64,000 nucleotides of DNA from a virus, in IMG/VR virus record IMGVR_UViG_3300028197_000003, positions 128,352 to 192,351 of that record. The stretch is one strand, 5' to 3'. Positions 9,456 through 13,344 of the stretch are shown piece after piece. Positions within the stretch are counted from its first letter, which is position 1. The number at the start of each line of letters is the position of its first letter. A program made the translations under genes and the position numbers. The notes under the pieces were generated by a model. It was not told the DNA's origin. It made no database searches and saw nothing but the letters and a program-made list of their open reading frames with translations.

Positions 9456-9911
9456 ATGGCAACGTCAAAACTTCCTAACAATCCTTTGGTCTCCGAACTG
9501 TTCAGAGCAGTACACGGTGCTAAGACTGTGGATAAAAAGGTTGAAATTTTAGAACAACACAAACGGGATGATGTAAAGGCAATCCTTATCTGGAACTTTG
9601 ATAAAGGTATCAAGTCTGCTATCCCTGAGGGAGATGTTCCCTATAAGAGGAACGAGTCTCCTGCTGGTACTGATGGTCACACTCGTCTGGTGCATGAGTG
9701 GAGGTCATTGTATAACTTTATTCGTGGGGGCAACGACAAACTATCTCAGATGCGCCGGGAAACCTTGCTGATTCAACTCCTAGAGTCACTTCATGCTGAC
9801 GAAGCAGAGATTGTTACTCTGACTAAAGACAGTGAACTGCAGAGTAAGTATCGTATTACTCGTAATGTTGTGGAGAAAGCATATCCTGAGATCAATTGGC
9901 GTGATAAGTGA
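9456..9911 (+). CDS. Conserved T4-like hypothetical protein
   Basis: Typical cyanomyophage ORF in the glutaredoxin-thyX block. Confidence 0.7.
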   Translation: MATSKLPNNPLVSELFRAVHGAKTVDKKVEILEQHKRDDVKAILIWNFDKGIKSAIPEGDVPYKRNESPAGTDGHTRLVHEWRSLYNFIRGGNDKLSQMRRETLLIQLLESLHADEAEIVTLTKDSELQSKYRITRNVVEKAYPEINWRDK

Positions 9912-11020
9912 AGTTTCTCATTGATCTAACAGATCATTGTAACTCCAAGTGTCCTCTATGTGCTAGGCATAAGACATCATATAATGATGAGGTTGCGGTG
10001 CTTGCACCTGACCCATCAATGAACCTGTCAAAGATTTCACTTGATCAATGGAAGACATGGTTCCCACAAAAGACCCTTGAGAAGACAGAGTTGATCTACT
10101 TCCAAGGGTCTTTTGGTGAGCCAACATTGTGTGATGATCTGCTTGAGATATATGCCTATACTCTAAAGTCAAATCCCAATATTGTTTTCCAAATGAGTAC
10201 CAATGGAGGCACTCGTGACGATGCATTTTGGGGAAGACTTGGTGCTCTCATGGGAGCATCACATAAAGATAGTTTCCTCATCTTTTCTATTGACGGTCTA
10301 GAGGATACGCTGCAGCATTACCGCGTAGGTGTGGACTATAAGAAGGTGATGAGGAGTGCTAAAGCATTCATTGCGGCAGGTGGTCCTGCTGTCTGGAGGA
10401 TGCTAGTCTTCAAACATAACCAACATCAGATAAAAAGATGTAAGACGTTGAGTAAACTGTGGAAGTTCAAAGACTTTCAACATACTCGTGTCAATGATAT
10501 GTATGACGCTAGTGGTCGTGGTGATGGTAAATTTACGTACTCATACAGAGATAAGGTGCATACCTTACAAGTAGCAGACGATCCTGACCATGTGTACCAC
10601 CCAGACCCCGTAGCAGAGGACTCAGAGGTGGTGTGCCGCTATAAGCATAGCAAAGGTACTCCTGGTCAACTGAGGATCGATAGCAGGGGTGTGGTGCATG
10701 CCTGCTGCTTCCATCAGTCACGCCTTAGGTTCTTCTACCCTGGATATTATATTGACAATGATCCTGATGCACCTGCTGTCTTCCGTGACATCAAAAACCC
10801 AAACAAGGGAGTGGGTGCAGAATACATGCAAAAAGTTTTCTGGGACAGCGTTATCCCTTTGATTGAAGAGCAGGGAGGTATCAAATCTATCTCATTGGAA
10901 CACAAATCGTTACAAGAGGTGCTACAGACTCCCTTTTTCCAGCATACTCTGGTAGACTCTTGGAGTAGTAAACCACACATCTGTGCGGACTATTGTGGGA
11001 AGAAAAGACGTGTCGATTGA
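9908..11020 (+). CDS. Radical SAM protein with SPASM/twitch-like C-terminal Cys
   Basis: CNSKCPLC, GEPTL, STNGG, C-terminal C...CC...CADYC. Confidence 0.9.
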   Translation: MKFLIDLTDHCNSKCPLCARHKTSYNDEVAVLAPDPSMNLSKISLDQWKTWFPQKTLEKTELIYFQGSFGEPTLCDDLLEIYAYTLKSNPNIVFQMSTNGGTRDDAFWGRLGALMGASHKDSFLIFSIDGLEDTLQHYRVGVDYKKVMRSAKAFIAAGGPAVWRMLVFKHNQHQIKRCKTLSKLWKFKDFQHTRVNDMYDASGRGDGKFTYSYRDKVHTLQVADDPDHVYHPDPVAEDSEVVCRYKHSKGTPGQLRIDSRGVVHACCFHQSRLRFFYPGYYIDNDPDAPAVFRDIKNPNKGVGAEYMQKVFWDSVIPLIEEQGGIKSISLEHKSLQEVLQTPFFQHTLVDSWSSKPHICADYCGKKRRVD

Positions 11021-11044
11021 TACTGACGTTCTTCTCTATATAAT
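11017..11044 (+). promoter_or_regulatory. Sigma70-like promoter ahead of the riboswitch-like leader
   Basis: TTGATA-N16-TATAAT. Confidence 0.6.
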
Positions 11045-11058
11045 ATAACATCATGCGA

Positions 11059-11102
11059 ATCGTTCATCCCCGTTGAGGGGACGCAAGTAAGTCGCGGAAC
11101 GG
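11059..11102 (+). ncRNA. Glutamine riboswitch-like aptamer 1 (glnA-like)
   Basis: P1 CGTTC/GAACG, P2 TCCCC/GGGGA, junction CGCAAGTAAG resembling the glnA-motif core as recalled. Confidence 0.65.
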
Positions 11103-11105
11103 AGC

Positions 11106-11294
11106 CGTTCATCCCAATGCTTGAAATACTTCTGTATTCATCACTCACCTGTCAACAAGCTGATACAATCATGCTGAAGATGAAAGCAAACGAGAATCTC
11201 TCAAATGCTTTCAAGGTAGAGTTGATAGAGACCGTAAAGGAATCTACACCAGAATGTCGCTGGTATTGGGACGCACACGACTGAAGGAACGGGG
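11106..11294 (+). ncRNA. Glutamine-II (Downstream-peptide)-like aptamer 2 with ORF-sized P2 loop
   Basis: CGTTCA-TCCCAA ... TTGGGA-CGCACACGACTGAAGGAACGGG; lies upstream of a YRG peptide gene. Confidence 0.65.
11117..11284 (+). CDS. 55-aa ORF nested within aptamer 2
   Basis: ATG...TGA open frame MLEILLYSSLTCQQADTIMLKMKANENLSNAFKVELIETVKESTPECRWYWDAHD; below ORF-track cutoff. Confidence 0.65.
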   Translation: MLEILLYSSLTCQQADTIMLKMKANENLSNAFKVELIETVKESTPECRWYWDAHD

Positions 11295-11325
11295 ACTAAA
11301 AAACCCATCCTTTAGGAGACCTACA

Positions 11326-11531: not shown

Positions 11532-11570
11532 AAGGGAAGGTTTGACACCTTCCCTTTTTTGTTTTATAAT
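11532..11570 (+). promoter_or_regulatory. Overlapping terminator and sigma70 promoter
   Basis: AAGGGAAGGT-TTGAC-ACCTTCCCTT+T run; TTGACA(11542)-N17-TATAAT(11565). Confidence 0.8.
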
Positions 11571-11576
11571 ACAACC

Positions 11577-11729
11577 ATGGAACGAGACAAACTCAAGATT
11601 ATTGTTTCCGATTTGGAAATGCTTCTCAGTGCTCTCAAAGCAGAGGTCTACTCTGATGTGGCGTCTTACCGTTTCGACGAGTGTGACCCTGTTGAGCAAA
11701 ACTACGACGAAATTTACGAAGGTCCATGA
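11577..11729 (+). CDS. Small conserved cyanophage protein
   Basis: MERDKLKIIVSDLEMLLSALKAEVYSD...; ATGA overlap with thyX. Confidence 0.7.
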   Translation: MERDKLKIIVSDLEMLLSALKAEVYSDVASYRFDECDPVEQNYDEIYEGP

Positions 11730-12373
11730 CAGTAGAACTTATCAGTGTTACTCCTGATTCTGAGCAGATGATGGCGTACATTGCTCGTGTGAGCAATCCT
11801 GCTAATCAAGAGAATGAAAAGTATTCTGGTCTACTAAAGTATTGTATCAAGCACAACCATTGGAGTGTGTTTGAGCAATCAACAATGACTTTGGAGATCT
11901 TTACAACTAGAGCAATCGCAGCTCAAATTTTGAGGCACCGCTCATTCACATTCCAAGAGTTTTCACAAAGATATGCTGACACTAAACTGCTGAAGGATAA
12001 CATTCCTCTTCCTGCAATGCGTCGTCAGGATACTAAGAATAGGCAAAATAGTATTGATGATTTGGATCCATATACTATTCAGAAATTGGAGTTACAGATG
12101 CAAACTCTATTCTCCTCTGCACAATCACTTTACAATCAGATGCTAGAGGAGGGTGTCGCAAAGGAATGTGCAAGAATGGTGCTTCCACTGTGTACTCCCA
12201 CCAAAATCTACATGACAGGCTCATGCAGATCATGGATCCATTACATCAATCTGAGGTCTGAAAACGGCACTCAGAAGGAGCACATGGACATCGCTCATGC
12301 ATGTAAGAAGATTTTTATTGAACAGTATCCTTCTGTGAGTGAGGCATTGGAATGGGTAAAATCTGCGGAATAA
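11726..12373 (+). CDS. thyX: Flavin-dependent thymidylate synthase
   Basis: HWSVFE, RHRSFTFQEFSQRY signature, AR.VLP. Confidence 0.97.
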   Translation: MTVELISVTPDSEQMMAYIARVSNPANQENEKYSGLLKYCIKHNHWSVFEQSTMTLEIFTTRAIAAQILRHRSFTFQEFSQRYADTKLLKDNIPLPAMRRQDTKNRQNSIDDLDPYTIQKLELQMQTLFSSAQSLYNQMLEEGVAKECARMVLPLCTPTKIYMTGSCRSWIHYINLRSENGTQKEHMDIAHACKKIFIEQYPSVSEALEWVKSAE

Positions 12374-13344
12374 ATCTGTCGCATAATGGATCTCTTGCCA
12401 TCCTTGAGGATGGTGAGGTCCAATTCTACATTGAAGAAGAAAGATTGAGTCGTGTCAAGCGGGATAGGTCTGCTTTGACTGCTGCGACTCAATTTTTAGA
12501 TGATTCTATTGGTGTGGTCACTATATGTGACTGCTATACCACATACAATTTGAAAAAATACCTGTTTAGAACCAAGCAGGCAAACAAAATCATTGATCTA
12601 GTCAAGGAAAAAGGACTTCCTCTAAAAGATTATCGTGACAGGCATCATGAATGTCATGCAGCGAATGCATATTACAACTCTGAGTTCAAAGATGCTGCTG
12701 TCATCGTCATGGATGGTAAAGGTTCTTTGCACCATCATAAAGATCTGAAGTTCTGTGAGACTGAAAGTATTTTTGACGTAAACGACGGAAAGTTTGAGTC
12801 AGTCTTCAAACATTACTCTACGTTCTGGAGCGAAGATGAGTCTAACAAGTTAGGTTCTTCTTTCTGGGACGGTAAAAACTTTTACAGTAATAGGACCAGC
12901 GTTGGTCAGGCGTATCGTAGAGTGTCACGATACTGTGGGTTTGATGAAACTGATGCTGGTAAGACCATGGGTCTATCCACGTACGGTGCAGCACCCATAG
13001 ATCTATTTGAGATTGACAATGGGCATAGCGTGTGCTCTACTGAACTCAGTCCAGAAGGTAATACCACCAGGTATACTGGACATGAGTGGCACCCTGAAGA
13101 CTTAGCATATCGACTACAAAAGTCTGCTGAGGAACATGCTATGTTCATGCTTGAGAAAGCATACGAGTTGACCGGTAAGGAGAACGTGGTTCTTACAGGA
13201 GGATTTTTCCTCAACTGTATTGCAAACCACCAGCTCCTAAAAACTGGTATAAATTTGTATGTAGATCCCCTTGCTTATGATGGCGGTCTTGCCATCGGTT
13301 CTGCTCTATTAGAACATTATGAGAACACTGTACCTCGGTCCTGA
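12352..13344 (+). CDS. Carbamoyltransferase N-terminal (Kae1-like) domain protein 1
   Basis: GINLSHNGS, EEERLSRVK, HHECH, MDGKG, GKTMGL, DGGLAIG (NodU/CmcH/TobZ family). Confidence 0.88.
   Translation: MGKICGINLSHNGSLAILEDGEVQFYIEEERLSRVKRDRSALTAATQFLDDSIGVVTICDCYTTYNLKKYLFRTKQANKIIDLVKEKGLPLKDYRDRHHECHAANAYYNSEFKDAAVIVMDGKGSLHHHKDLKFCETESIFDVNDGKFESVFKHYSTFWSEDESNKLGSSFWDGKNFYSNRTSVGQAYRRVSRYCGFDETDAGKTMGLSTYGAAPIDLFEIDNGHSVCSTELSPEGNTTRYTGHEWHPEDLAYRLQKSAEEHAMFMLEKAYELTGKENVVLTGGFFLNCIANHQLLKTGINLYVDPLAYDGGLAIGSALLEHYENTVPRS

Follow-up and report, generated by a model that had tools for sequence, protein, structure and literature searches.

The window analysed here, a 64-kb stretch of DNA taken from a complete 192-kb virus record, contains at positions 11059-11325 the leader of a DUF4278-like (IF17-like) gene, and within this leader lie two putative glutamine-aptamer cores, the second of which is split in two halves by a 55-codon open reading frame (ORF). 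The unit opens with a promoter, followed by the gene-bearing leader, the IF17-like peptide gene and a terminator (Table 1), and is mobile between contexts as a single block; its upstream neighbour is a radical SAM gene in the window, and nrdB or other small genes elsewhere. A sigma70-like promoter had been described ahead of the aptamer units in the original prediction, and the sequence there is a close match to the consensus; a similar promoter lies at an equal distance from the element in relatives, and the transcript should start a few bases 5' of the first aptamer strand. The protein encoded by the downstream gene matches phrog_545 (E 2e-31) and scores 19.9 bits (E 1e-3) with Pfam PF14105 (DUF4278), not reaching the gathering cut-off of 25.3; the gene at the corresponding position in ACG-2014b scores 28.6 bits, above this cut-off. 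The downstream gene is best named DUF4278-like.

Table 1. Predicted features of the two-gene unit, with window coordinates; helix names follow the nested fold described in the text.
Feature	Coordinates	Strand	Basis and remarks
Sigma-70-type early promoter	11017-11044	+	11/12 consensus positions, 16-nt spacer
Outer P1, 5' strand	11061-11065	+	Pairs with 11287-11291; invariant in all parsed loci; P1 in the RF01739 alignment of ORF-less homologues
First hairpin (glutamine-I P2 / glutamine-II P1), 5 pairs, 5-nt loop	11067-11081	+	Many compensatory stem variants in relatives
Outer junction: CGC linker strand and E-loop 5' part (11085-11089)	11082-11089	+	RF01739 consensus
P3, 5' strand (shared bridge helix)	11090-11094	+	Pairs with 11278-11282; covariation; P3 in the RF01739 alignment
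Inner helix, same sequence as P1, loop 11102-11105	11097-11110	+	11097-11101 pairs with 11106-11110; in MFE and centroid folds
Closing hairpin, 5' strand, holds the ATG (11117-11119)	11112-11121	+	Pairs with 11262-11271
Nested phrog_504 gene (55 codons; small helical protein with two cysteines)	11117-11284	+	ORF, profile match, codon-position entropy
Closing hairpin, 3' strand, within the last codons of the gene	11262-11271	+	Pairs with 11112-11121
Inner junction: second CGC linker strand and 3-nt spacer	11272-11277	+	Kept even where the gene stops earlier (L125, L133, L152)
P3, 3' strand	11278-11282	+	Two bases shared with the anti-SD helix, one with the stop codon
Anti-SD helix, 5' strand (= glutamine-II P2), contains the nested stop codon (11282-11284)	11281-11288	+	Covariation
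E-loop 3' part (11283-11286), outer P1 3' strand (11287-11291) and G of the long-range pair (11292)	11283-11292	+	RF01739 consensus; invariant
Anti-SD helix, 3' strand; overlaps the start of the Shine-Dalgarno by two bases	11308-11315	+	Covariation, predicted fold
Shine-Dalgarno of the downstream gene	11314-11318	+	Sequence; position unchanged in relatives
DUF4278-like (IF17-like) peptide gene, GTG start, 54 aa	11326-11490	+	
Intrinsic terminator closing the two-gene unit	11532-11556	+	10-pair stem, then T run

Unit 1 consists of a 5' strand (11061-11065), a hairpin (11067-11081), a junction and a 3' strand (11097-11101), and its motif recurs as the 5' half of unit 2 (11106-11116), which starts five bases after unit 1; these two units with repeated P1 and P2 motifs are found where the original prediction had placed them. 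Two core motifs were counted in the 64 kb and each occurs twice, both times in the leader: a 10-nt motif of the 5' half, for which 0.09 occurrences are expected, and a 25-nt gapped motif of the 3' half, which occurs in none of 100 shuffles. Because these counts are far above those expected, a chance origin of the repeated core motifs is excluded.

An Rfam scan of the whole window at the gathering score found nothing, and unit 1 alone lies below both relevant cut-offs, with 29.2 bits for RF01739 (cut-off 35) and 27.8 bits for RF01704 (cut-off 33). Homologues that are free of the ORF score 41.1, 40.3 and 38.4 bits with RF01739, exceeding the cut-off only if the alignment spans both units: the 5' strand, the first hairpin and the 5' junction are taken from unit 1, followed by P3 with an insert of 41-46 nt, and then by the E-loop piece and the 3' strand of unit 2. 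Unit 1 is without a 3' E-loop piece and unit 2 is without a 5' piece, and the RF01739 threshold is passed by the composite only. In this scoring the natural ORF-less homologues, together with their alignment, act as a stand-in for a loop-deleted window leader; with 11118-11265 removed the window leader is identical at 75 of 90 positions (83%) to the natural ORF-less element of phage ACG-2014f, the one scoring 41.1 bits.

Bases matching those that contact glutamine in solved structures (PMC6698751) occur, as far as sequence tells, in both cores, and the core and ligand-contact positions are kept across hundreds of diverged loci in which adjacent synonymous sites vary. By homology the element appears to be a riboswitch of the glutamine-I/II kind, its ligand binding being predicted, and it appears to join the architecture of type I with a long-range pair in its type-II form. 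The presence of glutamine-riboswitch-type cores upstream of a DUF4278-like peptide, as first proposed for this leader, is supported. That the leader senses no ligand here, and is a degenerate relic or a protein-binding leader resembling glutamine aptamers, would fit with the window having no Rfam match at the gathering score, but we regard this as extremely improbable given the conservation of the core and ligand-contact positions in hundreds of diverged loci, the ORF-less homologues scoring above the curated threshold, and the covariation of four helices.

The block is present in 415 GenBank cyanophage records as identified by blastn, with at least 80% of its length covered in 256 of them, and several hundred IMG/VR contigs share the element; scanning IMG/VR at the protein level yielded 145 loci (80 retained), and a scan with the 3'-half pattern gave at least 120. 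All relatives are T4-like cyanophages (Kyanoviridae) infecting Synechococcus and Prochlorococcus. The 99 distinct elements obtained by pattern include 59 in which core 1 is compact and core 2 holds a gene, 23 with genes in both, eight single-core elements with a gene, and six whose two cores are both compact; a core-2 gene is present in about 90%. ORF-less versions are represented by ACG-2014f and three IMG/VR loci, and since such elements are a small minority among those counted, the gene-bearing form is the rule. Pattern scans for host counterparts in 185,579 species-representative prokaryote genomes gave only phage-like contigs (MAGs/assemblies) and chance-level hits, and this sequence version, which is what the scans covered, looks phage-only.

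The ORF within the second core runs as originally described, and its last six codons (11267-11284) encode the 3' strand of the hairpin and the unit-2 junction, with the final P1 strand following at 11287-11291. Entropy by codon position is 0.79/0.36/1.08 bits among 68 distinct 53-codon versions, and ORF length changes only in threes, from 51 to 66 codons, with 173 loci in frame with the 3' strand. The window protein matches the phrog_504 profile over its full length (E 5.9e-27, residues 1-55 on profile positions 1-53), 58 diverse members align as a single family in which the N-terminus is hydrophobic, Cys12 is invariant and Cys47 nearly so, and an AlphaFold (AF2) model has four short helices with a pLDDT of 85.7. 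We judge the ORF to be coding because of this codon periodicity, the in-frame lengths, the coherent family and the confident predicted fold, and on such sequence-derived grounds it is a real gene; its proposed conservation is likewise borne out by the phrog_504 match, the periodicity and its occurrence in some 90% of the 99 distinct elements. Searches with the nested protein gave no Pfam match, no PDB fold match with an E value below 1, and only unnamed Atlas clusters; a signal-peptide or disulfide role, suggested by the hydrophobic N-terminus and the two cysteines, would be a guess.

Core-1 nested genes, which encode 65-68 aa, belong to this family as paralogues (hhalign 91%, E 1e-6) and align cysteine to cysteine, and such a paralogue occupies the first hairpin in ~24% of related elements. 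The C-terminal residues of most family members are dictated by the aptamer sequence; at some loci the gene ends just before the aptamer 3' motif, and the RNA motif is still conserved. A reading as a homing or otherwise mobile ORF was considered and rejected, the protein being too small, without nuclease features, and always in frame with the stem.

The long-range helix between TCCCAA and TTGGGA (11112-11117 with 11266-11271), which had been proposed to close the gene-bearing loop, is present, and because it extends to 10 pairs in the window the whole of the ATG is paired. Across 162 distinct loci the first four closing pairs are formed in 98-100%, and pairing takes in the A of the ATG in 85% and the entire ATG in about 30%. 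At closing pair 4, 125 loci have C-G, 19 U-A and 13 U.G, with no mismatch, and its covariation is not significant in a tree-aware test. The start codon adjoins the conserved stem, 4-5 nt past the junction, in nearly all of these loci, and the nested gene always ends in or right at the closing 3' strand; in core-1 genes the ATG is usually paired with the triplet preceding the stop codon. Because the start and last codons sit in aptamer helices, translation and aptamer folding must exclude each other, and on this point the original prediction is supported.

The match between gene and hairpin was further assessed by shuffling, using 39 diverse loci (<80% mutual protein identity) for codon order and 40, these together with the window, for synonymous codons. 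The natural hairpin closes more often than its codon-order shuffles in 38 of the 39 loci (median predicted probability 0.93 vs 0.38), and when synonymous codons are permuted the natural gene favours closure in 37 of the 40 (median 0.93 vs 0.61). That natural codon choice favours hairpin closure is offered as an indication and not as a formal test, the loci being related. The window itself has no excess of closure in the synonymous shuffle (0.96 vs 0.95) because its 10-pair stem closes anyway.

These relationships bear on whether the nested gene is a passenger. Hairpin loops may simply tolerate inserts, such that a small-gene family settled there, the riboswitch controls DUF4278 only, nested translation is without regulatory meaning, and the conserved flanks perhaps serve as recombination sites for cassette exchange. 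The loops do vary, with non-coding inserts of 22-47 nt occurring in unit 1, different gene subfamilies occupy one slot of otherwise similar loci (L232 vs L233), one locus (L187) looks recombinant, and a glutamine-II aptamer supplied in two pieces still assembles with its ligand in vitro (PMC6698751). A passenger would not, however, be expected to keep its start codon against the stem and its end at the 3' strand, to pair its ATG with the triplet before its stop in core 1, to maintain this arrangement in two paralogous slots over deep divergence, or to have synonymous sites that favour closure, and ORF-less elements are few. We therefore consider it unlikely that the gene is a passenger.

The leader was originally taken to be a tandem in which each unit closes its own P1. 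The two cores stand, but the separate closure is not supported: both own-unit P1 helices would carry a mismatch in 25 of 148 distinct loci, and in these the cross pairings are intact. The conserved fold appears instead to be nested, with an outer P1, a P3 that bridges both junctions, and an inner helix. Cross-unit folds made from interchangeable P1 strands had been raised as a possibility in the original prediction, and covariation in the inner helix and in P3 indicates that this cross pairing is the conserved fold itself. In the outer P1 the 5' strand of unit 1 has the 3' strand of unit 2 as its partner, and neither strand ever varies; four apparent variants of the 5' strand proved to be parsing artefacts, and a scan of IMG/VR for a variant of the 3' strand (C at the first P1 position) gave no hits. 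Being invariant, the outer P1 provides neither contradiction nor proof from covariation.

The junction-proximal pair of the inner helix is G-C in 123 and C-G in 25 of the 148 distinct loci, with no single mutants. Locus counts overstate the number of independent events, as the loci are interrelated, but a tree inferred from other columns requires 13 or more changes of state at this pair, and in eight of eight independent pairs on supported branches the two positions co-change (p 0.008). The equivalent pair in glutamine-II is among the few that are neither highly conserved nor ligand-contacting (PMC6698751), and for this reason the swap should be tolerated. At the second pair of P3 most loci have G-C or G.U, all 14 loci with a 5' A have A-U, and all three loci of the S-TIM4 lineage have U-A. 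Changes on the 3' side of P3 are synonymous or conservative in the nested gene and the 5' side is non-coding, such that the constraint on P3 acts on the RNA. Phage P-RSM6 is an exception, with repeat-like junctions present and complementary P3 strands absent.

The junction and E-loop pieces (11082-89 and 11283-86) fit the RF01739 consensus solely in the nested reading, and the outer junction includes counterparts of the ligand-contact G and long-range C of PMC6698751. Predicted nearest-neighbour energies for the window are -78.2 kcal/mol for the nested and -74.8 kcal/mol for the side-by-side fold, the latter being weaker by 3.4 kcal/mol; the ground state, at -85.8 kcal/mol, is one with the helix that covers the start of the Shine-Dalgarno (anti-SD helix; see below). 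The inner core, which is without an E-loop, may simply extend P3 structurally.

A side-by-side tandem, in which each unit forms its own P1 and binds glutamine independently while the nested pairings represent off-states or misfolds, has several points to commend it. Both units contain the full core motif; the ORF-less unit 2 of relatives, taken alone, scores 34.0 and 32.1 bits with RF01704 (cut-off 33); some elements, such as S-H68 and L147, have one unit and a nested gene; P-RSM6 has its repeat-like junctions and no P3; and glutamine doublets are listed as tandem in surveys (PMC9481103). The single-core elements must pair their own strands in glutamine-II style. Against this stand the 25 of 148 loci with both own P1s mismatched and perfect cross pairings, the covariation of P3 through three pair types, when in a side-by-side arrangement P3 would be a pseudoknot, the division of the E-loop pieces between the units with only the composite above the RF01739 threshold, and the weaker predicted energy. 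As the conserved state the side-by-side fold is rejected on covariation, and we consider independent binding by two such units to be very unlikely.

A further helix, between 11281-88 and 11308-15, joins the end of the nested gene to the ribosome-binding site downstream. In the nested stop codon the middle base forms with its partner a G-C pair in 68 loci, A-U in 37 and G.U in 34, with no A.C (tree-aware sign test, p 2e-4). The anti-SD helix is a competitor of P3, with which it has two bases in common, and since it also draws on the E-loop and the first P1 bases, it and the outer core are mutually exclusive. The role of the anti-SD helix as an off-state is uncertain, since its glutamine-II counterpart, P2, coexists with the bound state, and single-core loci (S-H68, L147) contain it but lack a P3 partner.

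We consider it probable that the nested fold is locked by glutamine, with release of the downstream ribosome-binding site and clamping of the nested start codon, and that ribosomes on the nested gene undo the sensor. The early phage transcript would open with a composite glutamine riboswitch, one core being folded inside the other. The outer core would be a canonical glutamine-I three-way junction made up of P1, the first hairpin, P3 and the two E-loop pieces, and the inner core a second, circularly permuted junction past P3, formed by the P1-like inner helix and the long-range hairpin that closes the gene. Without glutamine the anti-SD helix would form, sequestering the E-loop along with two P3 bases and the first bases of P1, and would cover the start of the Shine-Dalgarno, leaving the DUF4278 gene off. 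With glutamine the nested fold would be locked and the anti-SD helix blocked, allowing translation of the DUF4278 gene, and tertiary and ligand energy would pay for the switch from the anti-SD ground state, as riboswitches usually require. With the fold locked, the nested start codon and its 5' flank would lie inside the inner helix and the closing hairpin, hindering initiation. A ribosome on the nested gene would unzip the closing hairpin and, on reaching the stop codon, also P3 and the anti-SD helix, and ribosome traffic would thereby reset the sensor and briefly expose the downstream ribosome-binding site. The direction of the switch follows what has been reported for glutamine-I and glutamine-II, which are translational ON switches for DUF4278/IF17 genes, with the proposal that glutamine melts a duplex occluding the ribosome-binding site (PMC6212724).

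Because a ribosome terminating at 11282-84 opens the anti-SD helix, downstream expression could be coupled to nested translation and not opposed to it. Under such an arrangement early sensing of glutamine at core 1 would release the nested gene's 5' flank from the inner helix, terminating ribosomes would open the downstream ribosome-binding site, and both genes would be glutamine-ON. In most loci the anti-SD helix has the stop codon in its 5' strand, the inner helix, 6 nt upstream of the ATG, rivals the own P1 of unit 1 for one strand, and the nested gene is transcribed ~150 nt ahead of the closing strand, all of which would suit coupling. It needs unit 1 to act as a stand-alone aptamer, however, which the C-G variants of the inner helix weaken, and ORF-less elements keep the anti-SD helix, so this helix is not there solely for coupling. 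We regard coupling as the principal logic of the leader as quite unlikely.

The leader could act as a two-input toggle that works in both directions. Glutamine on two interlocked cores would turn the IF17-like gene on and the nested gene off, nested-gene ribosomes would dismantle the sensor, and the phage would combine host nitrogen status with translational activity in choosing between two small effectors early in infection; many of the 'tandem' glutamine riboswitches in databases may then be nested double sensors. We put this forward tentatively, as a possible reading and not the expected one.

Riboswitch aptamers are usually regarded as compact non-coding domains, and the element described here is a predicted sensor, conserved across hundreds of cyanophages, in which one or two of the hairpins house a protein gene. 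It would be a natural setting where both ligand binding and ribosome traffic work on one set of helices, and a nested, helix-sharing way to combine two aptamer cores. Most of these elements escape standard covariance-model scans, so that marine phages use riboswitches more than current counts show. Host nitrogen status controls cyanophage yield in the ocean, and the layout would tie a large, so far unannotated two-cysteine phage protein family, and the IF17-like peptides adjacent to it, to that status.

Coding sequences are associated with structured RNAs in several other settings. The leader of the Salmonella mgtA Mg2+ riboswitch likewise contains a short ORF, mgtL, whose translation changes the RNA fold; mgtL encodes a 17-codon sensor peptide and lies outside the aptamer helices, whereas the cyanophage genes form a conserved 51-68 aa family inside an aptamer hairpin, with the start and stop in the stem. 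Homing-endonuclease ORFs in group I introns and the tag ORF of tmRNA are examples of coding sequence in a peripheral loop of a functional RNA, but the nested gene here is neither a mobile-element gene nor a tag template, its host RNA is by homology a metabolite sensor, and the helices of that RNA use the start and stop regions of the gene.

Among glutamine riboswitches, those of phages are already known (PMC9964418, PMC9004378), and our literature search found no description of a gene inside an aptamer hairpin or of nested, helix-sharing cores, an early remark (Ames and Breaker 2011) being possible. A survey of tandem arrangements lists 157 glutamine doublets and 4 triplets, described as independent side-by-side units (PMC9481103). 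These share with the cyanophage leaders the presence of two glutamine cores per leader, probably giving a sharper response; they differ in that the cores here appear from covariation to be nested and to share helices, and nested genes are unreported there.

The closest relationships are with the two glutamine riboswitch classes themselves. With glutamine-I (glnA RNA, RF01739; the Synechocystis gifB/IF17 leader, PMC6212724) the element shares P1, the first hairpin, the junction, the E-loop sequences and P3, and it similarly lies upstream of a DUF4278-type gene, with the same translational ON logic expected. It departs from glutamine-I in that P3 opens into a second aptamer-like junction with one hairpin enclosing a whole gene, the long-range pair is C:G in glutamine-II style, and the window scores below the Rfam gathering score. 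With glutamine-II (the Downstream-peptide motif, RF01704, PMC6698751) it has in common the P1-PK-P2 order that core 2 would form together with the anti-SD helix, the reported ligand-contact bases and the downstream gene family, and the single-core phage elements resemble this class. Unlike glutamine-II, P1 here carries a 148-nt coding insert, and in the double elements the strand partners of the pseudoknot are swapped between cores and P2 competes with the type-I P3.

The genes that flank the riboswitch unit (the double glutamine-aptamer leader with its nested and DUF4278-like genes) in the window code for a radical SAM protein, ThyX and part of a carbamoyltransferase (see table). In relatives this same block is found in neighborhoods that differ from that in the window, and it therefore behaves as a movable cassette.

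Features around the riboswitch unit (window coordinates)
Feature	Position	Remarks
Flanks of the unit	9908-11020 and 11726-13344	Radical SAM protein (Pfam match at E 6.5e-9); ThyX (match at E 1.7e-47); carbamoyltransferase, N-terminal part
Terminator hairpin with overlapping sigma-70 promoter of perfect consensus	11532-11570	Promoter: 12/12 positions, 17-nt spacer
phrog_878 gene	11577-11729	50 aa, downstream of the 12/12 promoter; its stop overlaps the ThyX start (11726)

The element also lies on two contigs filed under cellular organisms (L207 and L208/L247, from genome_contigs), one of 194 kb binned as a Synechococcus MAG and the other of 188 kb in a Nonlabens xiamenensis assembly. Judged by size and content, both contigs are probably whole cyanophage genomes that have been misfiled.

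At six IMG/VR loci (L020, L023, L046, L053, L064 and L068) the first hairpin of the element holds a conserved non-coding insert of 47 nt, and at L039 it holds an unlike insert of ~38 nt; both are too short for a gene, and could be remnants or additional structure. An additional conserved module of ~45 nt with a GNRA-capped hairpin is present in L034, L045, L180, L204 and others, where it follows the last P1 strand and precedes the 3' strand of the anti-SD helix, replacing the short A-rich spacer present at that position in the window.

The IMG/VR locus L187 has one aptamer with a 321-nt insert, at a site that precedes the 3' half of this aptamer by ~330 nt. The insert starts similarly to the gene nested in the first core of other elements (core-1-type) and then runs into a different coding sequence. 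L187 looks as if a double element had undergone a deletion, or a recombination, between its two cores. In the element of cyanophage P-RSM6 (L227, 610-870) the same 9-nt stretch occurs in both junctions in place of complementary strands of the bridge helix P3, and the second hairpin still contains a gene. This form of the element, from a Prochlorococcus phage, may consist of two glutamine-II-like units that truly stand side by side.

Downstream of the DUF4278 gene, the -35 box of the perfect-consensus promoter is embedded in the loop and 3' arm of the terminator hairpin, an arrangement similar to the promoter-stem-loop cassettes of T4-type phages.
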